A DNA stretch of 64,000 bases from Candidatus Poseidoniaceae archaeon (GCA_938075675.1 CALJHE010000003.1:51738-115737); one strand, 5' to 3'. Positions 13,441 through 54,768 are shown, counted from the stretch's first letter. The notes: generated from the sequence alone by a model not told the origin. Made by a program: numbers and translations.

Positions 13441-13461
13441 CATTCTAGATGTGTGAAATTA

Positions 13462-13534
13462 CGCCGATTGAGGGGTTCGAACCCTCGACCTTGGGATTAA
13501 CAGTCCCACGCTCCACCAGCTAAGCTAAATCGGC
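13462..13534 (-). tRNA. tRNA-Asn (anticodon GTT), CCA not encoded
   Basis: Cloverleaf folded by hand. Acceptor GCCGATT/AATCGGC, D-stem GCTT/GAGC, anticodon stem TGGGA/TCCCA with loop CTGTTAA, T-arm GAGGG-TTCGAAC-CCCTC, discriminator G. Confidence 0.85.
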
Positions 13535-13569
13535 ATCGTTGGCGAACCGCCTCCCCTTTATGACGGCTT

Positions 13570-14904
13570 CTATTGTTCAGACTCGACAACGGTCCTGATG
13601 AGCCGTGAGAACGGCTCTCCCCTTTGGTTGCTGATACGAAGTGCATTGGTCAGTTTACTGCGGTGCTCAGAGCTTAATGGCTCTTCATGGTGGACGACCA
13701 TCCATGTTTCTCCCGCAGAAATTTCCGTGTTCTTAACTGAATGAAGAACAAAGCCTACAGTGTGCATTATCTCGTCATCCATCGAAAATCTCCCCGCTCC
13801 GAGTTCACGAGCAACCTCTGCCAAGGCCATGGCATCAATTGAATCGACATATCCAGTATGAGTGGATGTTAACTCGGTTCGTAGACTCGATTGCGGTAAG
13901 ACGCTTTGCGGGTCAACTGCCAATTGTTGAGCGACGGAACTGCTCGTGCCTTGCTGGATGCACATAGCGACAAAGACCTCCAATGCCTGTCCTCCGTCGA
14001 GGACTTGACCGATCATTCGCATCCCGTCTTCGAGCGTTGCAGCTTTGCCAGTGAGATTCAGTAATTGGCCACCTTGGAGCATCACGAGTTCACGTGTATC
14101 CTTTGAGCCTTGACCTTGAAGTACGAGTATGCTACCTGTGACCTCGAGAGCGTTTCCAATGTGCGTTCCAATGGGTTCGTTCATGTCGGTGACTTGTGCA
14201 ATCGTTTTGATGCCAAGACCGTTTGCAGTGCGGACCATTGATTCTGCAAGTTGGACAGCATCGTGCTCCGTTTTCATGAAAGCTGCTCGACCGCATTTGA
14301 CATCAAGGACCAATGCATTCAGTCCTTCTGCTGCTTTCTTTGAAACGATTGAAGCAGTGATGAGTGGGATACTGTCAACGGTATCCGTCACATCTCGAAT
14401 GGCATAGAGCAGTCCATCTGCTGGAGCGATCGAGTCGTTCTGGGCGGCGATGCAGCATCCAATTTCCTTGACTGCGATAGACATGGCATCAGGTGAAAGG
14501 TTGCAGTTGAAACCGGGAATAGATTCGAGTTTATCGATTGTTCCTCCTGTATGCCCAAGCCCTCTTCCAGCAAGCATCGGGATGCGTACTCCACATGCCG
14601 CAAGAGCTGGAGCAAGAATGAGTGACATCTTGTCGCCAACTCCACCCGTACTGTGTTTGTCGCAAATATTTGCGTCGCCTTTCCAAGATAAAACAGCCCC
14701 TGAATTCATCATGCCGGCAGTGAGGGCAGTCGTTTCCTCTACTGAAATGCCATTGGAATGAACACACTTCAGCCACTCTTCGATGAGCGTGACAGAAATA
14801 GAGCGTTGAGCGACGCCTTCAATGAACTCACCCAAGTCCTCAAGTGACATTTTTTCCCCTTCACGGACAGCATCGCACATTCGGTGAACGAGAGTCTTGC
14901 TCAT
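13570..14904 (-). CDS. thymidine / pyrimidine-nucleoside phosphorylase (DeoA family)
   Basis: DKHSTGGVGDK and GRGLGHTGGTIDKLESIPG motifs. Track start 14913 is GTG. In-frame ATG (MSKTLVH) at 14904. Confidence 0.75.
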   Translation of the reverse strand: MSKTLVHRMCDAVREGEKMSLEDLGEFIEGVAQRSISVTLIEEWLKCVHSNGISVEETTALTAGMMNSGAVLSWKGDANICDKHSTGGVGDKMSLILAPALAACGVRIPMLAGRGLGHTGGTIDKLESIPGFNCNLSPDAMSIAVKEIGCCIAAQNDSIAPADGLLYAIRDVTDTVDSIPLITASIVSKKAAEGLNALVLDVKCGRAAFMKTEHDAVQLAESMVRTANGLGIKTIAQVTDMNEPIGTHIGNALEVTGSILVLQGQGSKDTRELVMLQGGQLLNLTGKAATLEDGMRMIGQVLDGGQALEVFVAMCIQQGTSSSVAQQLAVDPQSVLPQSSLRTELTSTHTGYVDSIDAMALAEVARELGAGRFSMDDEIMHTVGFVLHSVKNTEISAGETWMVVHHEEPLSSEHRSKLTNALRISNQRGEPFSRLIRTVVESEQ

Positions 14905-14909
14905 GGCGT

Positions 14910-15863
14910 TCACTTCTCTTTTGCTAGACCGATTTCTACGAGACGTTGGTGGAGATAATCACCAGCAGTAATGGATTGGTAGTTGACTTTTCCACCGGTC
15001 ATTTCAACGAATTCTTGGCGGGGAGTCAGGTCAATTTCATTCCGTGGATGAACAAACATTGGCATTGAGAAACGTCGCTCGTTTGAGTTTTCAGGATTTA
15101 CCACGCGATGGGTTGTTGACTTGAACAATCCATTGGTCAAGTTTTGAAGCATGTCTCCAGAGTCAACAATGATGTGACTCGCATCACCTTCAACTTGAAT
15201 CCAACTTCCATCATGGTCCATGACTTCAAGACCATCTGCGGTAGCAGTTACCAGCAATGTGATGAAATTGATGTCTTCATGGGCTGCAGAACGAACTGCG
15301 CCTTTGGGTACATCGTTGCCAAGTGGCGGATAGTGGATGATGCGCATGATTGTGTTGCCATCTTCTGCCATCGATCCCAGCCAGTCCATCGGTTTGTCAA
15401 GATAGAGGCTGCAGGATTGAAGTAAGTTTTGAGACAATTGTTCCATCTGTACGTACAGTCCGTCGATAACAGGTTTGAACCCAGATACATGTCGGTCTGG
15501 CCACACATTTGGAACATAGGTCGGAGTTTTGCCACTGGTAGGGTGGCTGCGACCGGTTTGCCAGAATTCTTTGAGGTCTGGTGCTGGATTGTTCTTTGCG
15601 TGTTCAACACCGAAAGCAGTGTAGCCTCTTTGATGAGCGATTTGAGGTTGCAGGTATGAGTGCTTCACTTCGTCACTAAGGGCGAAGAATTCGTCGCCTA
15701 GGCGATAGGACTCCTCAACGGCTTCCAAGGGGATGCCATGGTTCTTCAAGGCAAAGAATCCGATGTCTTTTAGAGAGTCTCCAACTGCTTGGATGAACTT
15801 GAGTTTACGGTTTTCATCTTGACTGAGGAAGTCTGCGTAGTCGACTACGGGGATACTACGCAT
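14910..15863 (-). CDS. 2-oxoglutarate/Fe(II)-dependent oxygenase (isopenicillin-N-synthase-like family)
   Basis: HxD...H facial triad (AHEDINFITLL ... TTHRVVNP), about 317 aa. Coordinates are from the ORF track. Confidence 0.65.
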   Translation of the reverse strand: MRSIPVVDYADFLSQDENRKLKFIQAVGDSLKDIGFFALKNHGIPLEAVEESYRLGDEFFALSDEVKHSYLQPQIAHQRGYTAFGVEHAKNNPAPDLKEFWQTGRSHPTSGKTPTYVPNVWPDRHVSGFKPVIDGLYVQMEQLSQNLLQSCSLYLDKPMDWLGSMAEDGNTIMRIIHYPPLGNDVPKGAVRSAAHEDINFITLLVTATADGLEVMDHDGSWIQVEGDASHIIVDSGDMLQNLTNGLFKSTTHRVVNPENSNERRFSMPMFVHPRNEIDLTPRQEFVEMTGGKVNYQSITAGDYLHQRLVEIGLAKEK

Positions 15864-15872
15864 CCATTCACC

Positions 15873-16658
15873 TCAGTTCATGTTGGAGCGAACCTTGCTA
15901 AGGAGGCGCAGCATTTCAACGTAAATCCAGATGACGGTGACCAGTAGTCCGAAGGCACCCCACCATTCACCAACTTTAGGCGTACGCTGTTTTATTCCAT
16001 TTTCAATGAAATTGAAATCCAACACGAGATTCAATGCCGCAACAACAAGTATGAACAACGTCAATCCGATTCCAATTGGCCCGGAAGTATGTAAGAACGG
16101 AACTTGGATGGAGCCTGGGATCAGGTACAGTATGATGGATATTGCATAAAGAATCATGATTCCGAGGGTGAGGCTGATCACAACACGCTGGAACATCGGT
16201 GTCGCTTTGATGATTCGACTTGCATACAATCCATACATCCCAGCAACGATGCTGAGTGTTCCGATTCCTGCTTGGAAAACGATACCTTCGTACATGCTTT
16301 CAAAAAAGAGCGAAATCCCTCCAATGAATGCGCCTTCGAAAACTGCGTAGGTCATCATGAGCGGAACGGGATTTTTAGGGCGTATCAGGAAAAGTGCAAG
16401 CATAATGGCAATACCTCCAAACATGCCGCCCATCATTGCAGTGAAAGCAATGCCGATATCGATTGTAAGAGCTGTGTAAAGGACCATTGCAGCAACGAAG
16501 AGTGTAGTTCCAAAAAGAATACCAATCTTCTGCATCACACCTTCGTAGGTCATTGATTGATGCCCTTCTATGCTGTTCCAAAAATTGTTTGACAGGACTG
16601 GATTACTTGATGTGTATGCCATAGTTATCGAGCATACCACGGAGTGGTCCTTTGTCAA
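15873..16658 (-). CDS. Bax-inhibitor-1/YccA family membrane protein
   Basis: About 230-260 aa with 7 predicted TM helices and a C-terminal IWIYVEMLRLL segment typical of the BI-1/YccA family. 11 nt downstream of the nuclease gene. Confidence 0.5.
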   Translation of the reverse strand: MTKDHSVVCSITMAYTSSNPVLSNNFWNSIEGHQSMTYEGVMQKIGILFGTTLFVAAMVLYTALTIDIGIAFTAMMGGMFGGIAIMLALFLIRPKNPVPLMMTYAVFEGAFIGGISLFFESMYEGIVFQAGIGTLSIVAGMYGLYASRIIKATPMFQRVVISLTLGIMILYAISIILYLIPGSIQVPFLHTSGPIGIGLTLFILVVAALNLVLDFNFIENGIKQRTPKVGEWWGAFGLLVTVIWIYVEMLRLLSKVRSNMN

Positions 16659-16669
16659 ACTTGCGTCAA

Positions 16670-19600
16670 TTATGAGTTCTCATCGACTTGTTGCTGATAA
16701 TATGCGGCAAGTTCGTCCATCGGCCATCCTTGGTCAAGATATGTTTGAATGGTTTCCTCGGACCAGCCGGGGCACCGTGCCAAATCGGCAGGTGAAATAC
16801 GTCCTGGTGAATCGGGTGTTCCACTGCCATCCAAGACTGGCATCTCCCAGTTATCAGAGTCCATTTCACCATTGGCCAATGCCTCAAGGTTTTGGCTTTC
16901 AATCGTAATGAGATCTTTTACCTCTTCTCCTTCGGATTCGATGTTACGTAGTATCAAGTAAGCGCCTGCAGCAAGTACGATGCCACCCAGCATGACCAAT
17001 GCCATGAGCGTGGCTCCAAAGTCAGTACCTGAATCAGCACTTGGTGTTGCTATCGAGTTGCGTTGTTCAGTGGAACATCCATCATCACTCACTGGGACAT
17101 TCGATGGAGTGTCAGGACACGTGTCATCTCGATTGATTACACCATCACCATCGTCATCAAGCAGGTCGTTGTCAATGACTGAGTCATTGTCATCTGGGAT
17201 GACGCCGGCTAGGTCGCAACCGAGTGCCTCTGATTCATTCACGCCGTCTCCATCAGCATCGGCAAGCAGCAGTGCATCTCTGGGTGAAATATCGTCGACT
17301 GATGGGTCCAAAGCAGTTGCTTGAGCCCAGGTGACTTCGATCAAATCTGGAATACAATCTCCGTCAGTGTCGGCATTGGTTGCATGGCTTCCATACACAT
17401 ACTCGACGTTGTTTGTTAGTCCGTCTCCATCAGCGTCATGTTCTCCTTCGAGGATGTTGAAATTTGGTAGGGTACGTATTGTACGGTTGAGACCATTGGC
17501 GACTTCCCAGTAGTCTGGGAGTCCATCGTTGTCTGTATCGGTAACGTTATCGGTTCGAATCCAATCACGATACCATCCTGCCATGAACGGGGCAGTTACT
17601 TCTGTACTGCTCAGAATGAGCCCCATCTCGCGATTGCGTGTTGGAGCAGAATCTCCCCAGTTGATGGAGGAAATAAGCACATGCTCTCCGTCCACGATCA
17701 TACCCTTGTTGTGAAGTTTGGAAACATCATCGTCTTCGCTCATGACAATAGCACTGACATCGTAACCGAGTGAAGAGTTCCATTCTTCGTTGAATGTGTC
17801 AACGACTTCTTGGATGTCTTTGTCGAGGTATGCTCCATTAAGGATGAGTCGAATACGGACATCCTGCTTTGCAGCATCTTCCAGAGCACTGACAATTGGG
17901 TTGTCACCCCATCCCCAGCTCCACTCAACATCGAGATATTGCAGAGAGAGAAGGATTTCTTCATCAGCTTGTTGAATCATCCATACGATGCCATCAACAC
18001 AAGTGTCTGGGCAAGTAATCAATCGGCCACTCACATCTGTTGTGATGGAGTCTGCGGCAGTTCCGTTCACGAGTGGCTTTAGAGCATCCAAAGACCATCC
18101 ATTTGGGGCAGAATTGGCGCTCACTTGCGTGATGTAGGTGCGGCTGAGTGATTCATCGTACGATATTTGTTCTAAAACTTGCAGAGCAAGGTCCGTGTTT
18201 TCAATAAGAACGCCCCACTCGGAGTTTCCTCTGTCATCAGGGGCCGGTTGGGACGAACTCTTCCAATTTCCAGAACTCATCCAAACGCTGGTGTTGTCTC
18301 GAACGGCCACCTTGCTGTGAATGTAGGTGTATGGCTCATCGCTTTGTCCTCCAAACCATAGGGTTGTGATTCCTGCTGTAGCCAAAAGTCCAGCAACGCC
18401 GAGTTGGTTGTTCTTGTCGTAGTTGTTCCACCAATACTCGGCAGTGTTGAGGACAACGGTGACATCAACACCGCGGTTGTGTGCTTCAATCAAAGCTTGC
18501 ACAAGGTTCGGTTGTTCAATTTGGTAAAGGTGGACATGGAGAGTTTCAGACGCACCATCAATCCAGTTCAACAAATCGATGAGTCCTTCTTGAGGTCCGA
18601 TCAGAGGTGTAACTGTGCTGATACCACTGAATTCTGTTGGGCCGCAGAACGTGCTCGCACCTAGCCGTCCCCATCGGTGTTGCCAATCCACGGCAAGGTC
18701 CGTGTCTGGTAGGTTGCCACATCCATCGCCGCGGTGGTAGACCAGAAGCGATATGCTGGAAACAGGTTCGACCAAACTAATGCCGCTCCATCCTGCGATG
18801 TCGACTGGGCCGTTTCCGTAAACGAACGTATCTGCTAGCATTCCCGAGGGGGTCAGAATGTTCACTGCAGCACCAGAATCTGGGAGTGTGAACCCACTCG
18901 GGCTGAGTGCTTCATCAAATTCAATTCCCATGCCATCTTCATAGACTGAGAGTCCACTCACGTCTGCTACGAGAAGAATTGAACTGGCTGCTGCAATACT
19001 CACATCACCGATTTGATAGTTTGTGGCTTCATTCGCAGAGTTCACCATGGTGAGCGTCCATCCATTCATGTATGCAAGACTGTCTCCAATATTGCTAATT
19101 TCAATAAATTCTGTGTTCGCTGAAATGTCGGTTGAACCTTCGGGCATGAAGCGGCTGAATACAATGTCGTCTGCTTCTGCAAAGAGGCTTGGGTCTGGTT
19201 CTGCAGCGCCGGGGGTAGGCCAAAGAAGGGTTTGCCAACCGGACATATCATCGCTCGGACCCACTGTTTGACAGTCACTAACAATACTCCATTGTGCCAT
19301 ATCGACAACAAGGCCATCAGGATTCGAGAGTGAGAATTGGTCGGACAGGCCTGAAAGAACATCGTCATCCATGAGAAGCACTGCACGTTCTTGTGGAGCG
19401 AGTACCATGCTGCTCTGATTCCACATGGAGGTGCTACGTAAGAACCGTCGGTCTTCGCTTGCGGTATCAATTCTCCAACGGCTAATGTTCAGGTCTTCTG
19501 TGCCGTTGTTCATCACTTCAATCCAATCTTCAACTGGAGTGATGGAATCATCGTTACAGTAAGCGAGTGCTTCAGTGAGCACCAAGTCATTTGAACCGGA

Positions 19601-21562
19601 GTATTCTGCCCACATTGGATTCACTTCGCCTGGAGTTGCCCATGCGGATTGTATCCAGTGGGAGTCAACAGCTGCCGCAGTACCTGATGGTCCAGCGCCA
19701 GCATGCGTACTGTTTGGAGCGATGAGTGATTCTCCTTCGACGGTTGATGTCCATGAGATTGAATCAACCATGGCGCCGTTCCCGTCAATCATAACGATCG
19801 AATCAGGTGTGGTATGCTTGAGGTAGAAACTGGTAGTTCCGTTGAGGGCGATAAGTGCAACTTCACCTGGTTGAATGATGGATGTCGATTGCAAGGGCAT
19901 GTTGAATTGATGCAATGTTAGAGAACGGCCAGCTGCTTGGAATTTCCATCCGCCAACATCAAGAGCAGAACTTCCGTTGTTGTAGATCTCAATCCATTCC
20001 CCAAGAGGCCATTGCTGTGAGTCACTTCCAACTGCGTCAGGGAACACTTCTGTGAATACAGCAGCACCTGTTGATGGTGTTTGACCTGGATCCGGATGGC
20101 CTGGAGTCATCCATGTCGAAGGGACCCAAGGGTCGGACTCGATATCGTCTTGTACAAGAGAAATGTTTTGGCCGTAGTTGGTTGCATACCACGCAGAATC
20201 GACCACAGTGCCAGAGGCGTCACGAAGCATGAGTTGGTTGTAATAATCCCAAAGTTCAGTGTCTCCAGAGAACTGGACAAGCCTTCGCTCATCTGCATCA
20301 ATGGACGTTGAGCCTTGGGTTTGGTTAAACACCAATGTTCCGGGGTCAAGAATGGTCACATTCCCCATTCCGTCGATAATGGACCACCCATTGAGATCAA
20401 TTGTAGTCGAACCTGTGTTCAACAGTTCAATCCATTCACCTTCAGGGAAAGCAGAACCATCGGAACTGCTGTTTGAAAGAATCTCTGCAAATTCGATTGG
20501 AGATGGTGTGTTCGCTATCACGTCGAAGTGGAGTGGATTAGCCGCATTTGGCGTTGGATATGCAGCATAAATCCAATGCTGTGAAGACGGTGAGTCGACC
20601 AGCGAGAAACCAGCTTCAGTGTCGGTCCAAGAAATATGCTGAGCTCGACTTCCGTTCGGCCAGAAGAGTGTTAGCGATTCAACACCGTTGTTGAGTACAC
20701 CAGAGTTGCCTGAACCGTTTACCGCAATCATTCGTGTTTCACCAGGGAGAATAACGTTCTCAGAAAGGGTCTCAGAGAATCCTACAAGGTGTACGGAATC
20801 GAAATCAAGTTTGTTACCCGCAGCATCTTCAATCGACCATCCGTTCAGGTCCATGGTGTTGATTCCTGTGTTGAGAATTTCGATCCATTCACCGCCAGGC
20901 CAGATGGCATTGTCTTCAGAAGGCCATGGGTTTGACATGACCTCGTTCATTACAAGGTCCGACGGAATAACTGTTGGACCAGGTGTTGTGCCGCCGCCGC
21001 TGTTGATTGCGCCGGGGCTCGGGCCACCGGTTGGAATCCAGTCTGCAGTAGGTGTGGCGTTATCTTCTTCGTAACTGACACCGGATGCTGCGCTGGTCCA
21101 TGTTGCTTGATCCAGTTGTACACCTCCGTCAGTGTAGAGGCTTACGATGTCATCGGAGTTAGCAAGATAGAAGTTCGTCAGTCCGTTTCGAGCGACAACC
21201 ATGTATTCATCAGGTTCAATCTCCCATGTTGATGAGTTTGCAGCATCGTAACCAACGATGCTTGCCGAATTGAAGTACAATGTTTTCGAAGCCTTGTTGC
21301 TGAGATACCAATCGAGGACATCAACCGTCGATGTTCCCGAATTGTGGATTTCCATCCATTCCCCACCTGGCCATGTGGCATCATCCGCACCGTTTGGGTT
21401 TGGAAGTGCTTCGTTGAGACAGATGTCGCCGCTGCAGGCCAGCGAACGAGCTGAGGTGAAGTCAATGGATTCGGTATCGTTTAGGGTTGATACACTCATC
21501 GAAAGTGTGGTCGAAAGTACCATCAATAGAGCGAGGCCGAAGGAGCGGAGTACAAGGTTCAT
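16670..21562 (-). CDS. secreted, tail-anchored multi-LTD phospholipase-D-superfamily (dual HKD) enzyme, putative extracellular nuclease
   Basis: Signal peptide. Six lamin-tail-domain repeats (GEWIEI.N.G...DL.GW pattern, about nt 19000-21400). Two HxKxxxxD(x6)SSxNW motifs: HSKVAVRD at about 18311-18319 and HNKGMIVD at about 17691-17714. Four or five DxDxDGxxD Ca-binding repeats. TM helix, then a roughly 108-aa cytoplasmic tail. Confidence 0.7.
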   Translation of the reverse strand: MNLVLRSFGLALLMVLSTTLSMSVSTLNDTESIDFTSARSLACSGDICLNEALPNPNGADDATWPGGEWMEIHNSGTSTVDVLDWYLSNKASKTLYFNSASIVGYDAANSSTWEIEPDEYMVVARNGLTNFYLANSDDIVSLYTDGGVQLDQATWTSAASGVSYEEDNATPTADWIPTGGPSPGAINSGGGTTPGPTVIPSDLVMNEVMSNPWPSEDNAIWPGGEWIEILNTGINTMDLNGWSIEDAAGNKLDFDSVHLVGFSETLSENVILPGETRMIAVNGSGNSGVLNNGVESLTLFWPNGSRAQHISWTDTEAGFSLVDSPSSQHWIYAAYPTPNAANPLHFDVIANTPSPIEFAEILSNSSSDGSAFPEGEWIELLNTGSTTIDLNGWSIIDGMGNVTILDPGTLVFNQTQGSTSIDADERRLVQFSGDTELWDYYNQLMLRDASGTVVDSAWYATNYGQNISLVQDDIESDPWVPSTWMTPGHPDPGQTPSTGAAVFTEVFPDAVGSDSQQWPLGEWIEIYNNGSSALDVGGWKFQAAGRSLTLHQFNMPLQSTSIIQPGEVALIALNGTTSFYLKHTTPDSIVMIDGNGAMVDSISWTSTVEGESLIAPNSTHAGAGPSGTAAAVDSHWIQSAWATPGEVNPMWAEYSGSNDLVLTEALAYCNDDSITPVEDWIEVMNNGTEDLNISRWRIDTASEDRRFLRSTSMWNQSSMVLAPQERAVLLMDDDVLSGLSDQFSLSNPDGLVVDMAQWSIVSDCQTVGPSDDMSGWQTLLWPTPGAAEPDPSLFAEADDIVFSRFMPEGSTDISANTEFIEISNIGDSLAYMNGWTLTMVNSANEATNYQIGDVSIAAASSILLVADVSGLSVYEDGMGIEFDEALSPSGFTLPDSGAAVNILTPSGMLADTFVYGNGPVDIAGWSGISLVEPVSSISLLVYHRGDGCGNLPDTDLAVDWQHRWGRLGASTFCGPTEFSGISTVTPLIGPQEGLIDLLNWIDGASETLHVHLYQIEQPNLVQALIEAHNRGVDVTVVLNTAEYWWNNYDKNNQLGVAGLLATAGITTLWFGGQSDEPYTYIHSKVAVRDNTSVWMSSGNWKSSSQPAPDDRGNSEWGVLIENTDLALQVLEQISYDESLSRTYITQVSANSAPNGWSLDALKPLVNGTAADSITTDVSGRLITCPDTCVDGIVWMIQQADEEILLSLQYLDVEWSWGWGDNPIVSALEDAAKQDVRIRLILNGAYLDKDIQEVVDTFNEEWNSSLGYDVSAIVMSEDDDVSKLHNKGMIVDGEHVLISSINWGDSAPTRNREMGLILSSTEVTAPFMAGWYRDWIRTDNVTDTDNDGLPDYWEVANGLNRTIRTLPNFNILEGEHDADGDGLTNNVEYVYGSHATNADTDGDCIPDLIEVTWAQATALDPSVDDISPRDALLLADADGDGVNESEALGCDLAGVIPDDNDSVIDNDLLDDDGDGVINRDDTCPDTPSNVPVSDDGCSTEQRNSIATPSADSGTDFGATLMALVMLGGIVLAAGAYLILRNIESEGEEVKDLITIESQNLEALANGEMDSDNWEMPVLDGSGTPDSPGRISPADLARCPGWSEETIQTYLDQGWPMDELAAYYQQQVDENS

Positions 21563-21642
21563 GGTGCCACCAACAAACTGTGGGCTGAGTCTAAGGGCAT
21601 ATCACTTTCCCCTAAACAGTCACGAGGTGGGGATTGCAAGGC

Positions 21643-23154
21643 TCAAAGGAAACCGGCGTTATCCACTAGATTCTCGAACAGTAGATAGGTGATTGGAACA
21701 AGAATGACGCCCATTGCGTGGCTGCGGCGAATGCCAAGCCGTGGTGGGAGAAGCCCCAGCATTGTTCCGACGATTAGTACGGCTAGACCAATAAATCCTG
21801 TGCTCACAAACACCAAGGCGGCAACAAATATGATGACGCTCATGATCATCTGCTGCAGAGGGATGGCTGCGTGAAGTCGGAGCATACCTTTGCCGACGTA
21901 TCGCATGATTGGCATTGCCATGAGTCCAGCAGCTAATGTAATTGCAAGCAATCGAATGAAATCCGCTGTTGGTTCAAGGTTGCTCCAAGTATCGACAGGA
22001 TACATGGCCTTGAGTGCTAAAGTTGCCCCTGAGCGTGAACGGCCTATGATGTAGAGGAAACCGAGAACACACACGGTGACAGCAGTGTTTACCGCAGATA
22101 AAATGGCGATGATTTCCAAGTCTTGTTTGGTTTGCGGCCCTTCCACTCCTTCATCGGACTCCGCCTTGGCGATTTCCAGGAGTTCGTCATCTGAGAGTTC
22201 AGTCAATCGGCGAGTTTCCCAATCCATTCCAAATCCTTGCTTACCTTGGAGTTTGGCAGCCACATTCCGCCCACCCATGACCAGAACGGTTGCCTGAGAT
22301 GCCGTCATTCCAGGCAAAACGCCCATGGATGCACCGGCAACTCCAGACCAGAAGCACGGAACTAAAAGAGGCTTAGCGGGAGGTAAATCCCAGTTCTCCT
22401 TTTGAGGTGGCAAGTGCGATGTAGTCGCATAGATGTCAAGCAGGTTAGCAATTCCAAACAATCCTGCGAGGCTCGGTAGTAGAAGACTTGCACCTGGCAT
22501 ATCGATTGGAGAGCGTCCAGGCAGTGCATGCGGGCCAATGATGGTCCAGCCAAACAGTCCAGTCAACAAGAAAAATGCTGTTGCTGAGAAGAATCCTGCC
22601 AGTCTTGAATCATCGCCAAATCGCTTTCCAGTTGCGGTTTGAAGCCATTTTGGCCAGTCGAGACGAGTCGTTTCAGTCATCAAAAGTAGTGTTGAAATAA
22701 TGAGGAGGATGAAAGGCAGGAAGGTTCGGAGTTGGGAATACCACCCGAGTTCAGGACCAAATGCAATTCGAGCAAGAACAATCAATGGTAGGGAGAGGAA
22801 CAGGCCAAGTTGAGAACCGCGAGCAGACCAAGCGACTCCACGTGCTGCATTACCCGAAAGAAGCATACGGTGGCCCGGAAGTAAGGATAAAGCTTGATCG
22901 GCATCGGGCGCTCCCATAAGCGCTGAAGGAATATAATTCAAGAATGTGTGAACCGTACCTGTCGATACAATGATTCCAGCAACTGCTGAAAGCGGGATTC
23001 CAAGGCTCAGCAGCCCCGGTGCCAAGGCAAGTAGGATGAGTGCGACATTGTTGACGTGGAAACCGGGGATGATTCCGGTAAGTGTCCCCATTGCCACGCC
23101 CCCAAACAGAGCAGCGAGCATCCAACTCAGTTCGTAGATGTAGGCGTCAAGCAT
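21643..23154 (-). CDS. TctA/DUF112-like polytopic membrane permease
   Basis: About 500 aa, 10 or more TM helices. The N-terminal region (IPGFHVNNVALILLALAPG ... LMGAPDADQALSLLPGHRMLLSGNAARG) loosely matches the TctA family. Assignment is tentative. Confidence 0.4.
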   Translation of the reverse strand: MLDAYIYELSWMLAALFGGVAMGTLTGIIPGFHVNNVALILLALAPGLLSLGIPLSAVAGIIVSTGTVHTFLNYIPSALMGAPDADQALSLLPGHRMLLSGNAARGVAWSARGSQLGLFLSLPLIVLARIAFGPELGWYSQLRTFLPFILLIISTLLLMTETTRLDWPKWLQTATGKRFGDDSRLAGFFSATAFFLLTGLFGWTIIGPHALPGRSPIDMPGASLLLPSLAGLFGIANLLDIYATTSHLPPQKENWDLPPAKPLLVPCFWSGVAGASMGVLPGMTASQATVLVMGGRNVAAKLQGKQGFGMDWETRRLTELSDDELLEIAKAESDEGVEGPQTKQDLEIIAILSAVNTAVTVCVLGFLYIIGRSRSGATLALKAMYPVDTWSNLEPTADFIRLLAITLAAGLMAMPIMRYVGKGMLRLHAAIPLQQMIMSVIIFVAALVFVSTGFIGLAVLIVGTMLGLLPPRLGIRRSHAMGVILVPITYLLFENLVDNAGFL

Positions 23155-23166
23155 GAACCGTCCTCC

Positions 23167-24966
23167 TTAGTTACCGCTGTTTGGACCCGTGCCGTTTTCC
23201 ACTTCCTCGCGGTCAGTGATTCCGTCACCGTCCGTATCTTCGGTGTTGGAATTGAAGCCTGCCGCCTCTTCGTAACTGTCAGCAAGGCGGTCGCCATCGT
23301 CGTCTTGCGCATCCGCTTCATCGAGGGAATAAACGATGGATAACTGTGATGGGTGTTCAATTTGGCGCAGTCGACCCTTCCATGTGAGAGATTGGTTTTC
23401 ATGTATCGAGTCGGTTCCTATAGCATTGAGTTGAACATTGAGTTTGATCGATTGGTCAGACCCCGGGCGTTCGAGATACCATCCGTCGTCTTTGAGAGCG
23501 GCTTTGCCATCAATCAGTACAAACTGGTTTTTGGAATAGCCCCATTGTGTTGCACCATCGTCCCAAAGGAGCGTCGATGGTGGTGGTGGAGTACCTGTCA
23601 AATTGTACGAATTGACCATCAATCGAATTCGCATGTCCTCGTCGTCCCAAGCTACTGTGACATCGGCAATGACGCCTTGACCGGATTCGATCCAATCCGT
23701 ACGTGGTCCTGGGAAGGTCATAGCAATCGTTGTTTGGCCAAAGGTGTAGGTTTGACTGTCAACGAAGTAACCCTCGGTATCCAGAGGTTCGAATGCGTAT
23801 TTCATGTAGGTGTTGATGGTATAGTGCATGTATGGGTTTTCAAGCATTGAGGCAGGGTCAGCAGACAGCATTGCCTGCATTGACATTGCAGACATTGGAT
23901 TGACGAGGTTTTGGCCCATGCCTTGGTTTGCATCGATGCACCATGTGCTTCTGTCATCGCTCCACATGAGTCGACCTTCCGCATCAAAGACTGAGTTGTT
24001 GTAACCTCCATCAGCAGCGTTCTCCATGTCTTCTGGTGTTGGGATGACGCAGATGGTGTTGCCACTCGGTCCTACAAGGTCCCATACTCCATTCTCGATG
24101 TGCAAAGTTCCTGCGAGGATGACTTTGCTACCAGACTGGTAACTCCAAGTGGCTTCAGTTGCCCAGTCGAGACGATTGACTGGCGGAACATGACTGCCGT
24201 CGATGAGAATATCTGGTCCTTGGGTGTGAAGAGCCCAACGAAGGCTGGTTTCTTGGTAGGATAGGATTCCACTGACCTCAATCTTGGAATCGGATTCAAT
24301 CCACTTTCCTGTTGCGGATTGGATAAGCAGTTGCAATTGATGAGCAGCATTCCCTGGATGGTCTGTAATGTATGCCGATGTGTAGACTGCGTCAGGACTT
24401 ACAGATTCACTAATAAACCCGTTCACAGTAACAATCTTACCGACATAGTCGGATGGAGATACAGCGATATCGGAAAGGGAAACTCGCTCAAGGGTTGGCA
24501 AATCTTGCGGCTCCCAATACAGAGCCCCAGACCCTGTAGCCTGCATGTAAAACCGGCCATTATAGTCGACCACATCACCCATCGCGGTGACATTCGTGCC
24601 TATGGGGGGAATTGTACCGGTTGAATACCAGCGAACTTGAATGACTCCAGTCTCATCCTCAATGACCAAATCCACACGGTCTTCACCGCTGCCGTATCGG
24701 TCTTCAATCCATGAAATAACTTTACCTTCAACCAAAACCACTTCGTTCGTGTATTGCACGAGGTCTTCAATTTCGACGACCTGTGGTTCCCGAACCATCG
24801 CATACCAATTGAGGGTGGCAACCAAAAACAGCGACAGCGCAAACATGACCCATAATTTCTGACCCCGGGTAGCCGGGTTGTCATCGGTAATCTTGAGCAT
24901 AATGTCCTTGAGAGCATCCGCCATATTTGCCCACACTAGCGCTCCGTGCTTAGGCATTGTCATCAC
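23167..24966 (-). CDS. membrane-anchored extracellular protein with OB-fold-like domains and C-terminal Ca-binding repeats
   Basis: Single N-terminal TM helix. Two segments with an OB-fold-like strand pattern (VVLVEGKVISWIEDR...; VGKIVTVNGFISESV...). C-terminus DDDGDRLADSYE...DTDGDGITDREE. 12 nt upstream of the permease gene. Confidence 0.4.
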   Translation of the reverse strand: MMTMPKHGALVWANMADALKDIMLKITDDNPATRGQKLWVMFALSLFLVATLNWYAMVREPQVVEIEDLVQYTNEVVLVEGKVISWIEDRYGSGEDRVDLVIEDETGVIQVRWYSTGTIPPIGTNVTAMGDVVDYNGRFYMQATGSGALYWEPQDLPTLERVSLSDIAVSPSDYVGKIVTVNGFISESVSPDAVYTSAYITDHPGNAAHQLQLLIQSATGKWIESDSKIEVSGILSYQETSLRWALHTQGPDILIDGSHVPPVNRLDWATEATWSYQSGSKVILAGTLHIENGVWDLVGPSGNTICVIPTPEDMENAADGGYNNSVFDAEGRLMWSDDRSTWCIDANQGMGQNLVNPMSAMSMQAMLSADPASMLENPYMHYTINTYMKYAFEPLDTEGYFVDSQTYTFGQTTIAMTFPGPRTDWIESGQGVIADVTVAWDDEDMRIRLMVNSYNLTGTPPPPSTLLWDDGATQWGYSKNQFVLIDGKAALKDDGWYLERPGSDQSIKLNVQLNAIGTDSIHENQSLTWKGRLRQIEHPSQLSIVYSLDEADAQDDDGDRLADSYEEAAGFNSNTEDTDGDGITDREEVENGTGPNSGN

Positions 24967-25022
24967 TCATTCTTAACAAAAAACCTCCAATATGGAGTTC
25001 TGAAGCATGCGGGCTCTTTTTA

Positions 25023-26351
25023 ATGGAAAAGCAGACCGGTCTTATGGGGATGGCCATGCGTGACCGGGTGATTCGAGATGAAATCCACAAGGATATTTTC
25101 GTCCCAGCAGCCCATGCAAAAATTATCGACACACGTGAATTCCAACGATTGCGTTCCATCCAACAACTTTCGACCTGCGAATATGTTTTTCCTGCAGCGA
25201 ACCACAATCGGTTTTCCCACTCTTTAGGCGCATACCATCTTGCTCGGGCACTTGTGGATTCTCTCAATGACGTTCAACCCGGTCTCGTATCGACTGATGA
25301 TGCTGAATTGATTCAACTTGCTGCTTTACTTCACGACATTGGCCATCCGCCCTTTTCTCATCTCCTTGAATCACCAGAAGTTTTTGCGACCTACCATTCT
25401 CATGAGCATTGGGGGCGTGTTTTACTTGAATCGACAGACACAGAAGTTGGTATGGCTTTGCTCGAAGCGCTTGGCCGGACTCGGCGTGACCGCCTCTTCG
25501 CTCTACTTGACGGTGCAAGTGAACATGAAGGCATTCCGATCCCGCCTTTCATGAAAGAAATCGTTTCGAGCCAACTTGATGTCGACCGTATGGATTACAT
25601 GGTTCGTGACCAAGCAAATACGGGTGCCCAAATCGGAGGTTTTGATATTGCGCGGGTCATACGTGCTTTGCGAGTGAGTGATGACGGTCATTTCTATGTC
25701 AAATCGTGGGGTCTTCCGGCGATAGAGGCTTATCTGGTTACGAGATACCACATGTACCATCAGGTGTATTTCCACAAGGTCAACATGCTGACACAAAATT
25801 ATCTTGTGCGAATGTTGTCGCGTGCTCGAGCACTTGCACACGATGGCGTGTTATCACTTTCACCTTCTCTTGAGAATATGCTCCTCAATTCAAACTTGGA
25901 CGCGAAGGGTTATGCTGCTCTCAACGACGCACATGTCCGGGTCGCTTTGCCAGACTGGGCTGAACACGATGATTCCATTTTGTCCCATTATGCGATGCGC
26001 CTGCTCTCTCGTCGAGATTTCCACAAGTCTCTACGAATAGAAGGCCTGAGTACTGAAATGGTCTCCGTCGTTTTGCCACGATTGGAGGCACTTGTTGCGG
26101 AAGCGGGATACGATCCAAATATTGATGTCATAACAGCTCGCATCTCCAAGCGTGGTTACATGCCGTATGAACAAGGAATTCTTCTTGAAGACGGAAGAGA
26201 TGCTGCAGACCATTCCCCCCTCGTTCGTTCACTCACCCAACCCAATGAGCGAGCGCTGATTTTCGTCCCCGATGCGATTCGTGATGAACTTGAATTGAGT
26301 GTCCGTGAGTGGGTCAAACCTTCACAATCCTCGCTCGCCCAGTTTGAATGA
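25023..26351 (+). CDS. HD-domain phosphohydrolase, dGTPase/dNTP-triphosphohydrolase-like
   Basis: HNRFSHSLGAYHLARAL ... LLHDIGHPPFSH metal-binding motifs. ATG at 25023 avoids overlap with the divergent minus-strand gene. Confidence 0.7.
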   Translation: MEKQTGLMGMAMRDRVIRDEIHKDIFVPAAHAKIIDTREFQRLRSIQQLSTCEYVFPAANHNRFSHSLGAYHLARALVDSLNDVQPGLVSTDDAELIQLAALLHDIGHPPFSHLLESPEVFATYHSHEHWGRVLLESTDTEVGMALLEALGRTRRDRLFALLDGASEHEGIPIPPFMKEIVSSQLDVDRMDYMVRDQANTGAQIGGFDIARVIRALRVSDDGHFYVKSWGLPAIEAYLVTRYHMYHQVYFHKVNMLTQNYLVRMLSRARALAHDGVLSLSPSLENMLLNSNLDAKGYAALNDAHVRVALPDWAEHDDSILSHYAMRLLSRRDFHKSLRIEGLSTEMVSVVLPRLEALVAEAGYDPNIDVITARISKRGYMPYEQGILLEDGRDAADHSPLVRSLTQPNERALIFVPDAIRDELELSVREWVKPSQSSLAQFE

Positions 26352-26393: not shown

Positions 26394-26467
26394 GGGGCCC
26401 GTAGCTTAGTTGGTTGGAGCACCCGGCTCATAACCGGGGGGTCAGGGGTTCAAGTCCCTTCGGGCCC
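26394..26467 (+). tRNA. tRNA-Met/Ile2 (anticodon CAT), elongator-type (G1:C72), CCA not encoded
   Basis: Hand-folded. Acceptor GGGCCCG/CGGGCCC, D-arm GCTT...GAGC, anticodon stem CCCGG/CCGGG with loop CTCATAA, T-arm AGGGG-TTCAAGT-CCCTT, discriminator A. Confidence 0.85.
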
Positions 26468-26553
26468 ACTTTTTAATCCCCGTCCGTTGGCTATTTTCTG
26501 AGCCATCACGGCGCAACGGTTATGAGGGTCTCATTACTGGGGTTGTTTGACAG

Positions 26554-27495
26554 GTGGTCTATATGTTGAAGCGTGCTCTGTTCCTTCTCGCCCTTTACCT
26601 ATGCTCGGTTATGATTGTTGCAGTTCCTGCTTCAGCTCAAGCACCGACCGCTGCAATTTCTCTTTCCTGCGCTCCAATTTCAATTAACATCGAAGTTAAG
26701 CCTGGTTCGACGTACAACGGTTTCACCACCTGTACCGCTAGCAATCCTACAACTTGGCAAGAGAAAATCAGCATTCTTGTAACCAGTGACGGATTAGCGA
26801 CTGCCGCTCCTGGTGACATGTACATCGGCGCAGGTGCAGAAGTCGATTTCCAGATTTCAGTTCGTGCTACACCTTACATGGTTATGCAAAGCCGAACACT
26901 CTCAGTCTCTGCTACGGTGCAAGAAATTAACAGTCTACCACCGCCAAACGTTGCATCGTCACAGAACAACATGATTGTCAACATCATGCAGTATTCTTTG
27001 GTTCAGGTTGAAGCAGTCGAACCTTTCGTACAGTTGATGCCGAAGAAAGACAAGAACTTCGAATTCAAAGTTTACAATCTCGGTAATCAAATAGATTTCA
27101 TGAAGGTAGGAATTACAGAATCAAGCCGTGAGAACCTCGAAGAAGCAGGGTTCACGATCAACTTGCCAGCAGTGAAGGTTCAGATTGACGCAATCCCAAC
27201 AGCAACGAAGGTTCGAGTTATGGCCCGTACCCCTAAGACGCAAGGTTGGAGTGACGCATACCACGTTCTCGACTTTTACGCTGAATCTGAATTCGCTTGT
27301 AACAACGGTGGATGTATCCGAGAATCTCAAATGATTACTGTGTATGTCCGTGGTGTCTATCTCCCCGGTTTCGAAATCGTTCCGGCAATCTCGATGATTG
27401 CACTGGCAGCAGCAGTTGCTGGCCGGCGTTTCGTTGAAGAGCGTGAAGAAGACGAAGAAAACGTCGTCTGGTACGAGTCAGCCCCCGGCCTGTGA
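26554..27495 (+). CDS. hypothetical secreted protein, C-terminal TM anchor with short acidic tail
   Basis: Signal peptide (…VAVPASAQA). C-terminus AISMIALAAAVAGRRFVEEREEDEE. GTG start in track, with an in-frame ATG at 26563. Confidence 0.45.
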   Translation: MVYMLKRALFLLALYLCSVMIVAVPASAQAPTAAISLSCAPISINIEVKPGSTYNGFTTCTASNPTTWQEKISILVTSDGLATAAPGDMYIGAGAEVDFQISVRATPYMVMQSRTLSVSATVQEINSLPPPNVASSQNNMIVNIMQYSLVQVEAVEPFVQLMPKKDKNFEFKVYNLGNQIDFMKVGITESSRENLEEAGFTINLPAVKVQIDAIPTATKVRVMARTPKTQGWSDAYHVLDFYAESEFACNNGGCIRESQMITVYVRGVYLPGFEIVPAISMIALAAAVAGRRFVEEREEDEENVVWYESAPGL

Positions 27496-32767: not shown

Positions 32768-32941
32768 GTCGTTTTGGCACTTACTTTTTACCGTTTAAAT
32801 CGACATCCGAAACAGCGCTCAATGTGATGCAGCAAGGCATTCATCTGTTGTCCTTTCAGCGGAGTCATTAAAAGAGGCTCTAAAGTGGCGAAGACGCTTC
32901 AGCCTTGCTGCTGTCGCGCAAACACCTTTGAGGGAAAAAAT

Positions 32942-35900
32942 ATGGAACAAATAACTGGCACAAAAAGCACTGCGCCAGCGGCACCGTTGGGATGGCTTAT
33001 CGCCCCCCTAGCAGTTCTGCTCGCACTCGCAGCTATCAAGCTCGTCGGCATTGACTTCGAGCTTACCGCAGATAACTTGGCACCGATGTTGATCGTCGGC
33101 GCCGCAGGCATCCTGGGTCTGGTCCCGTCGATGCTTGACCAATCCAAATCCGCATCAGTTTCCAAGGCCACTCTTTCCCTCTCCACTTTGGCCGTGGCGC
33201 TTATCGGTGCTCAGGCAATTTACATGCTTGACCATGGAGCATTCTCTGGTCTCCTGTTTGCTTTCGTTACGTTTGGCGTTCATTTCATGAGCAGCCGTGG
33301 CCGACACGAACTTGCGACCATCATCGTATTCATCGCTATGGGTGTAAACGTTGGAATGTTCATCGCATCTGATGCACTCACCACGCTACCTGAGATTTAC
33401 AATCTGGCAGCAGAGGGTGAACAACAAAGTTTGGTTTCAACATTCAACTTGAAAAACCAGGCTGTAGGCTACCTCTTCTTCTCACACCTTACAGTTTTTA
33501 CTCTCGTCGGTGTGTTGGTTGCAACCCTCGCCCGGGGTGTAATTACTCCTGTTGGTGAAGCCGGTTGGTTCAGTTTCTTGAACAACGATACGAGTTCAAA
33601 GTTCAACAAGAACAACCTTCCTCTACAAATTGCATTGACCGTTTGGGCTTTGGCTCACATCGGCAGTCTTTGGCACTTTGAGACTGTTAGCATTGCTGAC
33701 AAACTCGGAATTACTTCAGCAGCAGATTACCACGGCATCGTTGGCTATTGGCAAGCGTTCTTCACTGGAATTGTGGCAATTGTTGTTGCAGGTATGTACT
33801 CAGAACGATGGCACACTCGTGCCATGACCCTCGGTTCTCTATGGGTGCTCTACGTTGTTTCGTCTTGGTACGATGCAGGAATGTTTTCGATGGATCTCCT
33901 CGAAGGCAACTGGGGCAGTTTGATTTGGCTCGGACTTACCTTCTTCATCGGCGTCGGTATTTACTCAATTTCAACCCACGAAAAGTGGGGTGGCTGGGTT
34001 AACCGTGACGATCACGAATACTCCGGCGCTCGTAAGTTCTGGAATCAACACTGGTCCAGTGTACTGATTGGTCTCGCATTCTTCTTTGGTTTAGTCATCC
34101 GAACACAATGGTATGTTGTACCATCAATGAACGCTTTCGGAACCGGAAACTGGGACATGACCGGGGGTTCTGACCCTTGGTACATGAAGCGTGTCGTCGA
34201 TTACATTCTAGCAAACAACGCACACCTTATTTTCGATGCAGACCGCTCCTATCCAATAGGTGGGATCAACCCTCGACCTCCGATTTTCACTTGGTCTGTT
34301 GCAGTTGTTGCAACGCTTCTTGAACCGTTCTTTAGCAACGGTGATGCAGTTTGGTGGGCTATACTCTCCCTTCCTGCAATTTACGGTGCTCTCACCATTC
34401 TACCGGTGGCTTACATCGCACGTGAACACATCAACGAAAAGGCTGCAGTTGTCGCTGCTTGGCTGATTGCTTTCATGCCGGCTCACGTGAGTCACACGAC
34501 ATGGGCACTTGCTGACCACGACGCTTTCATCATGCTCTTCATCACACTCGGATTCATGTTCTGGCTTCGAGCGGTGAAGTATGCAGGTAGCGAGCGATTG
34601 TTGCGCTCCTCATCCCCATCGGCTTTGTCATTCATAAACGCATTTACCGCCGTCACGCAAGAACGCCGTGCCGCACTATCAGCCGCAGTTCTTGCCGGTG
34701 TGAGTTTCGGTATCGTTTCGCTTGGGTGGAAAGGTTTCGTCGTCGGTCCGTCAATTATCTTCCTGGCATACGCTGCTCAGGTCGCACTCAACATGTTCCG
34801 CCGCCGAGATTCAACGACACTCAACGTCTTGTTCCTCACCATGCTTGCTGTGAACTTCTTGATGGCCCTTCCTTTCTATGGTCACCCTCAAATCGACCTC
34901 ATGCTTGATGGAACTGGCCTTCAACCGTTCTTGTTTATCGTGATCTTTACGCTAGCAATCAGTTTCGTTACCACTGGATTCCGTGACAAGCCATGGTTGC
35001 TTGTCCTCGGTGTTCTTGCTGGAACTGGAACAATTTTCTTCATTGTATTGTGGCTCCTCAAAGAAGCGAACCTCTCCAATGCTTGGGATGTCCTTTTCAC
35101 CGGCAGTGGCTATTTCACGAAGACCAAGATTTTCGGAACTGTTGCTGAAGCAAATGCCCCAAACCGTGGACAGTTGTTTGCACAATTCGGACCGATTACC
35201 TTTGTCCTTTCACTTGTTATGGGTATTCTCTGCATTTGGTCGGCTCTACGTGATCGAAAGCAAACAAAGCTCGTATTTGGCGTCTGGATTCTCGCTGCCT
35301 CGTTCATGGCTTGGACTGCAGCACGTTTCATGTTCAATGCAACACCTGCAATTGCAGTTCTCGGCGCTTGGGGAATTGTTTCCCTTTGGAAGTGGGCAAA
35401 CTGGGAAGGCATGGTTAAAACATGGAAGAAGATGGGAATTCGTTCTCCAGAAGACCGTATCCGTGGTGCACGCAAGGCCCTTTGGCGCACTCCTTCCTTC
35501 TCTGCAATCATGCTCGTCATGATTATGTTGTTTGGACAACAGTTCACCTATGGTCTTGATGCTGCTATCCCTTCCAGCAACAATGCAGAAGACGATATTG
35601 ATGAAACAATTTACAACCTCATCCCTGATGTATTCCGCTGGGAAATCGGCGGTTTTTCGTTACTTGACGACAGTACTTACGACGGAAACTGGTATCTCGG
35701 TTCTTTCGGTTCTGGATTTAATGACAACGGCTGGAACTCGGCATATGAGTGGCTTGCTGAACAGGATCAAGACATGAAATATTCTGAGCGCCCTGCCTTC
35801 GTCTCTTGGTGGGACTATGGTTTCCAAGCCCTCGATACTGGTGAGCATCCGTCTGTATCCGATAACTTCCAAACAGGAATTCCTGCTACCGGTAACATGT

Positions 35901-48369: not shown

Positions 48370-48428
48370 AGCATCTTCTGCTCACAGGAGCGGAAGTGTT
48401 GAAGAGTAGAAAAACGCGAGGTGAGAAT

Positions 48429-50955: not shown

Positions 50956-51432
50956 TTATTCGTACGATTGCGGTCGGTCGTACTGCAATGATGTGACGCC
51001 GTCTGAGTGAACAACCCAAACCGAAGTTACTCCCGCCAATACGATGGTTCCTTCGTGGGATCCCGCACCTGTTCCTGATAGGGACACACTGGTGTCAAGT
51101 GTCCCTCCGTCGTGAATCAGTTCAATCGAGGTGTCGGTGAGTTGCAAAGTAATTCTTGCTTCATCCGCCTCGGTTAATCTCCATGTTACCTTTTCGGCGT
51201 ACTCGACTGCACCCATGCGGCTTGCTTCGTCAGCCCGTTCGACTGCCGCTGCCAAATCATCAAGATTTGATTGAATTGCATTTTCGTTCCACCGTTCTCG
51301 GGTTGCAGTTTCTATTTGGTATGCCCAAATACTGAATGTTGTAAGCAACAGCACTCCGAGTAGGAACGTGAATATGTAGCCAAGTTCAGTTGCTGCAGCA
51401 TGCTCATCTCTGCGAAGTTGATTTCTGTTCAT
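50956..51432 (-). CDS. small protein with archaeal class-III (pilin-like) N-terminus
   Basis: ATG at 51432 overlaps the stop of the upstream gene (ATGA). N-terminus MNRNQLRRDEHAAATELGYIFTFLLGVLLL. Confidence 0.45.
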   Translation of the reverse strand: MNRNQLRRDEHAAATELGYIFTFLLGVLLLTTFSIWAYQIETATRERWNENAIQSNLDDLAAAVERADEASRMGAVEYAEKVTWRLTEADEARITLQLTDTSIELIHDGGTLDTSVSLSGTGAGSHEGTIVLAGVTSVWVVHSDGVTSLQYDRPQSYE

Positions 51433-54721: not shown

Positions 54722-54738
54722 TTAGCCATTGACCTTGA

Positions 54739-54758
54739 CACCCCCCCGTAGGGGGGTG
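54739..54758. promoter_or_regulatory. G/C-rich hairpin CACCCCCC-CGTA-GGGGGGTG between the MBL hydrolase gene and the pilin-like operon
   Basis: Perfect 8-bp inverted repeat with a 4-nt loop, read directly from the sequence. Confidence 0.4.
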
Positions 54759-54768
54759 ATTTGGATGA

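Follow-up and report, generated by a model that had tools for sequence, protein, structure and literature searches.

In a 64,000-nt stretch of DNA from a Candidatus Poseidoniaceae (Marine Group II) archaeon, hereafter the window, we analyzed a gene cluster at positions 13570–26351 that is built around a giant membrane-anchored protein combining lamin-tail domains (LTDs) with a phospholipase D (PLD)-fold catalytic domain. The core of the cluster consists of four genes, encoding an anchored surface protein, a TctA-family permease, the LTD-PLD enzyme, and thymidine phosphorylase (TP). We read this core as a candidate surface module, found throughout the order Poseidoniales, for scavenging phosphodiesters, whose likeliest substrate would be extracellular nucleic acid (DNA or RNA), and we put the probability of this reading at roughly 0.4. 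An earlier note on this DNA had proposed scavenging of extracellular DNA. A nuclease-like clade, an OB-like structural model, and the gene linkage speak for that proposal; degradation, import, and catabolism are steps that we infer.

Gene linkage across Poseidoniales

A scan of species-representative genomes gave 393 relatives of the giant protein, and we compared the best 80 of these loci. All 80 belonged to Poseidoniales, and every locus that was long enough showed the same order. Homologue searches with three proteins returned close relatives only (at least 48%, at least 75%, and at least 77% identity) and no other lineages. Using the catalytic region as query, we searched 1.84 billion cluster representatives and then compared the contexts of the orthologues found, which were ∼1500–1670 aa long and down to 38% identical; the same search also returned numerous LTD-PLD or PKD-PLD proteins of smaller size from other archaea. 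With the window type included, the compared loci (designated by L numbers) fell into seven arrangement types, from both Poseidoniales families.

The row of surface protein, TctA, and PLD genes was unbroken in six of the seven types. TP lay zero to two genes after the PLD gene in all seven, either directly behind it, after a 2-oxoglutarate (2OG)-Fe(II) oxygenase gene, or after a BI-1-like gene and the 2OG gene. The 2OG gene occurred in four types and, where present, always stood directly upstream of TP, and the BI-1 gene occurred in two (it was missing in L087, L089, L096, L097, L098, and L100). On these counts, the core comprises the surface protein, the permease, the enzyme, and TP.

L088 and L098 carry the HD-domain gene, an S8 peptidase insert, surface protein–TctA–PLD–TP, SHMT, a 1610-aa gene, GuaA, and PurE. 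Their protein cluster includes a member labelled Thalassarchaeaceae, the family to which L098 probably belongs. L089–L091 read surface protein–TctA (with a large loop insert)–PLD–TP–acyltransferase, L097 reads surface protein–TctA–PLD–2OG–TP–NYN RNase, L100 reads surface protein–TctA–PLD–2OG–TP–S8, and L099 has the window order plus a 1417-aa insertion after TP. L087 and L096 carry GlnA, an AsnC regulator, PLD, TP, and unrelated genes (with an ABC system downstream) and lack both the surface protein and TctA. L087/L096 together with L089 are the strongest evidence for the link, because their flanks change while enzyme and TP stay adjacent. The giant protein of the distant lineages is 31–35% identical, and TP always lies downstream of it. 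The question raised by the earlier note, whether the order recurs in related genomes, is thus answered positively for close and distant lineages alike, with a qualification from order-wide collinearity that is weighed below.

In the window, six maximal open reading frames (ORFs) follow one another on the minus strand with distances of 12, 80, 11, and 9 nt and a 4-nt overlap, and the HD gene is transcribed divergently (Table 1). The maximal ORFs reproduced exactly the run, strand, positions, and gap sizes that had been noted before, and domain searches with the hidden Markov models of Pfam and NCBIfam confirmed every label given there, including the six-LTD, dual-HKD enzyme, the TctA/DUF112-like permease, TP, and the divergent gene resembling HD dNTP triphosphohydrolases, with the single exception of the OB fold of the surface protein. 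In public gene calls, the HD, BI-1, and TP genes have later starts than in the maximal ORFs; with the public starts, the gap from LTD-PLD to BI-1 becomes ∼47 nt, and 2OG and TP are parted by 5 nt. Since the true starts are probably later than those of the maximal ORFs, the divergent surface protein and HD genes would not overlap. Two tRNA genes (tRNA-Asn and tRNA-Met) flank the block on either side.

Several observations concern the compared loci themselves. For L097 (10612–11546), the public calls list a 2OG fragment of 170 aa and, on the minus strand, an ORF of 137 aa; according to tblastn, a frameshift interrupts what is a single 2OG gene of intact length, and the minus-strand ORF is thus an artefact. 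The slot after TP/tRNA-Asn and before GuaA is empty in the window and variable between lineages: it holds a 277-aa ORF and an S8-like peptidase in L036 (17923–20540), a TSP3 protein in L099 (the 1417-aa insertion), an 842-aa S8 peptidase in L100, and SHMT with the 1610-aa protein in L098. Paralogous LTD-PLD proteins outside the orthologue group, which have four PLDc_2 units, lie beside other genes (rhomboid, PorA) and are for that reason uninformative on the cluster. In L092 (16488–17456) and L093 (3670–4674), a rhomboid protease gene adjoins such a paralogue (∼2000 aa), recalling the rhombosortase/GlyGly-CTERM processing proposed for the anchored nuclease ExeM.

The tethered enzyme and the surface protein

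The giant enzyme carries both signature motifs of the PLD (HKD) superfamily, HxK(x)4D(x)6(G/S)SxN, in a single chain. Its HxK pairs (H1082/K1084 and H1284/K1286) were unchanged in 13 of 13 aligned orthologues, and both HKD motifs and 12 cysteines were invariant down to 48% identity; the catalytic H and K are also retained in deep orthologues, and full-length orthologues reach down to 31% identity. Along the LTD region, a motif NE..PNP..GEW.E..N recurs in the orthologue alignment. The topology, together with the invariant motifs and cysteines, marks the protein as a conserved enzyme that faces outward and is tethered to the membrane.

In sequence, the two PLD halves come closest to Nuc, NucT, and Zucchini, all of them nucleases, which is the grouping that had been named as the decisive one; they do not group with cardiolipin synthases (Cls) or lipid PLDs. 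When a single catalytic sequence was compared with PDB sequences, the E values were 2.8e-7 for Zucchini, 1.2e-6 for Nuc, and 1e-4 for NucT. A family profile gave 1.3e-13 for Nuc, 4.8e-9 for Zucchini, 6.1e-9 for NucT, and 0.003 for Serratia phospholipase D, and it retrieved no Cls, phosphatidylserine synthase (PSS), PLD1/2, PLD3/4, or Streptomyces PLD at E<0.1. In NCBIfam, DrmC (79.6 bits, below its cut-off) and NucT were the only matches, and Cls and PSS models were absent at E<0.01; neither NCBIfam nor the family profile placed the enzyme among the lipid PLD, Cls, or PSS families, and we rejected that membership. The catalytic domain (∼360 aa) aligned with the Nuc halves at 25% identity and superposed at 1.5 Å, and half-domain superpositions on Nuc, NucT, and Zucchini gave 1.5–2.0 Å, a similarity generic to the PLD superfamily.

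Each HKD half thus has its best sequence relatives in these three nucleases (1byr, 6ehi, and 4ggj), with which it has the HxK(x)4D(x)6(G/S)SxN signature in common. However, the three nucleases are single-HKD homodimers of ∼150–200 aa with a basic groove, whereas the archaeal halves are fused in a strongly acidic, anchored chain of 1630 aa. The PLD-family nuclease NucT is membrane-associated and has been implicated in purine (nucleobase) salvage (PMC5714352). The lysosomal 5′ exonucleases PLD3 and PLD4 (8v08, 8q1x, and 9vbg) resemble the archaeal enzyme in having two halves in one chain but are eukaryotic type II proteins that work at acid pH and lack LTDs; they are 15–18% identical.

Beyond the transmembrane (TM) anchor, the enzyme ends in a conserved cytoplasmic tail in which W1572, PVLDG, PGW, YLDQGW, and YYQ.Q are nearly invariant down to 48% identity. 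The tail (aa 1538–1630) has no Pfam match; tblastn found it in L088/L089 and gave no alignment in L087/L096. Its conservation suggests an intracellular partner or signal. One full-length orthologue (P0579, in the cluster of P0364) is deposited as “Deltaproteobacteria bacterium” (MDC0056395.1); this label is probably a binning error, because the other named members of the cluster are all Poseidoniales or Euryarchaeota.

The surface protein, p599, had been described as an OB-fold, Ca-binding protein. We found an N-terminal anchor and Ca-binding TSP3 repeats in it. The OB fold, by contrast, was not confirmed by Pfam, which returned TSP3 and weak matches only, and appears solely in a model built from a shallow alignment, which resembles nucleic acid-type OB folds at low confidence (pLDDT 52). 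The weak matches include CBM_5_12 in 10 of 18 p599 orthologues and DUF4131 (the N-terminal TM+OB part of ComEC) in 6 of the 18, the latter at a best E of 0.003, far below threshold. Based on the orthologue alignment, the true start of p599 is probably M15 (window 24924). All extracellular domains of the two surface proteins (16670–24924) have a computed isoelectric point (pI) of ∼4.05–4.5 and a net charge of −7 to −37 each; their cytoplasmic neighbours are far less acidic (pI 4.9–6.6).

The closest known designs are Xds of Vibrio cholerae and ExeM of Shewanella oneidensis, surface-bound nucleases with LTD and OB domains (PMC6746945 and PMC6085458). They resemble the archaeal pair in having a signal peptide, a lamin-tail domain, OB units (predicted ones in the archaeal case), a phosphodiesterase domain, and retention at the surface. 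In ExeM, the membrane anchor is likewise C-terminal, and the enzyme needs Ca2+. The archaeal pair nevertheless does not belong to their type, in which LTD, OB, and EEP domains share one chain: the catalytic domain is a two-HKD PLD fold instead of EEP, there are six LTDs instead of one, and the OB-like units belong to another protein, which is anchored by its N terminus. The candidate archaeal system also differs in its host and in the permease and nucleoside phosphorylase linked to the enzyme gene.

Permease and cytoplasmic neighbours

The permease is the best-conserved protein of the run (73–100% identity in Poseidoniaceae and 51–59% in distant lineages). It is of the 12-TM class; hydropathy indicates about 10–12 hydrophobic segments and a hydrophilic central loop, and no relatives were found among PDB sequences. 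TctA relatives and tripartite tricarboxylate transporter (TTT) carriers are known for carboxylates and other organic anions. The TctA family is common to TctABC and this cluster; neither the window neighbourhood nor the related loci contain TctB or TctC, so a full tripartite transporter is not present. The anchored OB protein may replace the TctC-type binding protein. In L089 (7763–9931), L090, and L091, TctA is enlarged to 699–722 aa by ∼180–220 residues added in the central hydrophilic loop.

TP scored above the curated cut-offs of NF004490 (433 bits; cut-off 269) and TIGR02644 (422; cut-off 409) and has the three-domain architecture of Glycos_trans_3N, Glycos_transf_3, and PYNP_C in Pfam. 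We rejected an assignment as archaeal AMP phosphorylase, whose model scored 182 against a cut-off of 535.

The 2OG oxygenase matched two uncharacterised bacterial proteins best (3oox at 185 bits and 3on7 at 140), and its closest functionally characterised structure was fungal thymine-7-hydroxylase (T7H; 5c3p; 113 bits), an enzyme of thymidine salvage. In T7H, Phe292, Tyr217, Asn87, Glu122, and Asn294 form the substrate sandwich and base contacts (PMC4787775). The archaeal protein keeps the metal and 2OG ligands, the equivalent of T7H Phe292, and the family-wide Arg190, while the other four substrate residues are replaced (Tyr217 by Ile198, Asn87 by Gln, Glu122 by Gln, and Asn294 by His). The suggestion that this gene encodes a thymine hydroxylase-type salvage enzyme is therefore unsupported, with one of five substrate residues retained. 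The gene lies directly upstream of TP where it occurs and is missing from three of the seven arrangements. The BI-1-like gene, present in two arrangements, was rejected as a system component. For both genes, the presence in the run and the family were as first described, but they are accessory and not part of the core.

The HD protein resembles EF1143 (2o6i; 4.8e-46) and SAMHD1 (about 1e-28). Because the NCBIfam dGTPase models matched it at sub-threshold scores, we assign it at the family level only. Its gene lies upstream of the cluster in most lineages, sometimes parted from it by an S8 peptidase gene.

Other genes of the window are recorded here as side observations. One of the region's best-conserved genes (65–99% identity in Poseidoniaceae) lies on the plus strand at 26554–27495. 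Its 313-aa product, which matches no Pfam family, has a signal peptide and a TM anchor at the C terminus, and a 41%-identical copy lies beside the HD gene in L088. The window also encodes a split GcvP and a separate GuaA C-terminal subunit; its homologues carry the names Candidatus Poseidoniaceae or Poseidoniales, in line with a Marine Group II source. A 3207-aa protein (32885–42508) has an STT3 (oligosaccharyl-transferase) domain near its N terminus, for which it is unusually large, followed by ∼2500 residues with CarboxypepD_reg-like β-sandwich domains. Two minus-strand genes for DUF7289/archaeal type IV pilin-like proteins (736 and 361 aa; 51429–55680) adjoin a metallo-β-lactamase-fold gene, and upstream of them lies a gene for an 862-aa STAND-type AAA_16 and TPR protein (48366–50954).

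Table 1. Features of the cluster, from upstream to downstream on the minus strand and then the remaining genes; genes are given as maximal ORFs unless stated otherwise
Feature	Residues	Window position	Strand	Basis or remark
Surface protein p599	585 aa from M15 (599 aa maximal)	23167–24924 (maximal ORF 23167–24966)	minus
p599 N-terminal TM anchor, after short cytoplasmic N terminus	24–44	24793–24855	minus
p599 three consecutive five-strand β units, OB type, predicted	∼48–335	23920–24783	minus
p599 C-terminal Ca-binding TSP3 repeats, after β-rich region		23170–23319	minus
TctA-family (DUF112) permease	503 aa	21643–23154	minus	PF01970, 148 bits
Giant surface enzyme	1630 aa	16670–21562	minus	Pfam LTD ×6, PLDc_2 ×2, PLDc, TSP3
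Signal peptide of enzyme	1–25
Six lamin-tail (Ig-like) domains	∼45–938	18749–21430	minus	PF00932, six stretches, 224 bits; boundaries approximate
Dual-HKD PLD-fold catalytic domain	∼975–1337	17552–18640	minus
HKD motif 1	H1082–N1099	18266–18319	minus
HKD motif 2	H1284–N1301	17660–17713	minus
C-terminal part of enzyme		16673–17551	minus	Acidic TSP3 repeats, TM anchor, tail
Acidic TSP3-type Ca-binding repeats	1338–1505
TM anchor of enzyme	1515–1537	16952–17020	minus	Hydropathy
Cytoplasmic tail of enzyme (93 aa)	1538–1630	16673–16951	minus	Conserved
BI-1/YccA-like membrane protein		15873–16658	minus	BaxI_1 PF12811, 208 bits
2OG-Fe(II) oxygenase, IPNS-like family		14910–15863	minus	Pfam DIOX_N and 2OG-FeII_Oxy
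Thymidine/pyrimidine-nucleoside phosphorylase (TP), cytoplasmic		13570–14913	minus	NF004490, TIGR02644
tRNA-Asn (GTT)		13461–13535	minus	Directly downstream of TP, end of run
HD-domain protein, SAMHD1/EF1143 type		25023–26351 (maximal ORF 24957–26351)	plus	HD and HD_assoc_2
tRNA-Met (CAT)		26395–26469	plus	Downstream of HD gene, other block boundary

Weighing a nucleic acid-scavenging role

From the domain content, membrane topology, and gene linkage described above, the substrate, its import, and its metabolic flow may be pictured as follows. The OB protein and the LTD array would hold a DNA or RNA polymer at the cell surface, probably through Ca2+/Mg2+ bridges, which we propose in view of the strong acidity of all external domains. 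Phosphodiester bonds would be cleaved by the HKD pair through a phospho-histidine intermediate, and a product would then enter the cell, possibly through the TctA permease, for which the OB protein would serve as binding partner. In the cytoplasm, TP would split (deoxy)pyrimidine nucleosides into base and (deoxy)ribose-1-phosphate for salvage or as carbon, and the SAMHD1-type dNTPase could be a second source of deoxynucleosides. BI-1 and the 2OG oxygenase would be later insertions and not core parts.

Several findings weigh against this picture, and the acidity of the catalytic domain is the main argument against a nuclease. PLD nucleases are described with an elongated groove of positive charge that leads to the active site (PMC5714352), whereas the catalytic domain here contains 59 D+E against 22 K+R, with a similar composition in ten deep orthologues; the argument holds unless divalent cations bridge the substrate. 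Only five noncatalytic positions are invariantly basic (R944, K1101, R1238, R1309, and R1311), and K1101, R1309, and R1311 lie beside the HKD motifs. The fold matches do not tell nuclease from lipase, so that fold ranking fails as a discriminator. The p599 model is poor, and its OB-like units are themselves acidic (pI 4.0–4.5). TctA-family carriers are not known to move nucleosides or nucleotides, and the cluster contains no nucleotidase, nucleoside transporter, deoB, or deoC.

The gene order, too, speaks less firmly than it first appears to. The flanking PurD, CarS, GuaA, PurE, and GcvP genes are equally collinear in the 80 loci, so the order within the family reflects collinearity of the whole region, and we rejected synteny within Poseidoniaceae alone as specific evidence. 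GuaA and PurE remain nearby even in the distant L098, L099, and L100, and part of the order is therefore inherited collinearity. Unrelated neighbours in this genome are packed just as tightly (GcvP2, hyp222, PurE, and GuaA are spaced by 35 nt, 36 nt, and a 23-nt overlap); tight packing is genome-wide, and spacing alone is thus not beyond chance. We rejected it as operon evidence; median gaps across loci are short but uninformative.

The same surface module could instead act on a phosphodiester other than nucleic acid, such as glycopolymers linked by phosphodiesters, glycerophosphodiesters, or the head groups of phospholipids from membranes and vesicles of algae or bacteria. The OB- or CBM-like units would then bind glycan or lipid-associated material, TctA would import an anionic product, in keeping with the organic anions known for TTT carriers, and TP would be unrelated. 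The extreme negative charge is a better match for zwitterionic or cationic head groups than for DNA, public annotations name the family “cardiolipin synthase-like,” and the CBM_5_12 matches, weak as they are, recur in 10 of 18 surface-protein orthologues. Yet the profile search that matched nucleases found none of PLD1/2, Streptomyces PLD, PSS, or Cls at its threshold, the compact catalytic domain aligns with the Nuc halves, and TP keeps its place near the enzyme gene throughout the seven arrangements, also where the flanks have been rearranged. On balance, we consider a non-nucleic substrate unlikely.

The genes might also form no functional unit at all, with the giant LTD-PLD and OB-like proteins serving in adhesion or in the envelope, the rest doing housekeeping, and the order representing ancestral collinearity in a compact genome. 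The collinear flanks, the persistence of GuaA and PurE in L098–L100, and the short gaps between unrelated genes all speak for this explanation, and so do the insertion of the unrelated BI-1 and 2OG genes between enzyme and TP and the several other giant surface proteins of the window (3207, 1465, 1917, and 595 aa). It is at odds with the invariance of the HKD motifs and 12 cysteines and the retention of the catalytic H and K in deep orthologues, which indicate an enzyme and not only a scaffold. Moreover, indels or rearrangements occur at every other junction, yet surface protein–TctA–PLD is intact in six of seven types, and PLD and TP stay together in all seven, even in L087/L096, where all else differs. 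We regard the absence of any functional unit as doubtful.

A bolder form of the scavenging proposal is a new uptake system, in which the anchored tandem-OB protein would be the capture subunit of a solitary TctA carrier and the tethered PLD nuclease would feed it oligonucleotides or nucleotides. We think this quite improbable; if true, the OB-TctA-PLD system would be a new transporter architecture, would give one of the most abundant groups of planktonic archaea a way to consume dissolved DNA or RNA, and would, in its extreme form, be a DNA-import machine. Competence-like DNA uptake, with the OB protein receiving DNA, the PLD nuclease degrading one strand or trimming, and a TctA-like channel passing single-stranded DNA (ssDNA) or oligonucleotides, would parallel the combination of OB domain, channel, and nuclease in ComEA/ComEC and could draw on the three envelope genes as the tightest unit, on the link of NucT to transformation (PMC5714352), and on the DUF4131 matches, but it is very unlikely, because those matches are far below threshold, the cluster lacks a competence-channel domain, any link to pili, and cytoplasmic genes for handling ssDNA, the TctA fold is a secondary-carrier fold, and TP, as a catabolic neighbour, is more in keeping with feeding than with transformation.

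Surface scavenging of phosphodiesters, with DNA or RNA as the likeliest substrate, remains our preferred reading, held tentatively. Marine Group II archaea are uncultured and among the most abundant archaea of the surface ocean, and proteins, lipids, and polysaccharides make up the main diet inferred for them. In the sea, dissolved DNA represents a large pool of phosphorus and nitrogen. In full-text literature searches, we found neither the family nor the cluster described for Marine Group II; the only, incidental, mention of LTD or PLD in the group was a PLD survey that lists a Poseidoniales genome (PMC12242099). If the reading is true, the cluster would provide a concrete, testable gene set for DNA/RNA foraging by abundant planktonic archaea, would carry the surface-nuclease design of LTD plus OB, known from bacteria, over to archaea with PLD as the catalytic engine, and would suggest the first substrate class for solitary archaeal TctA carriers.

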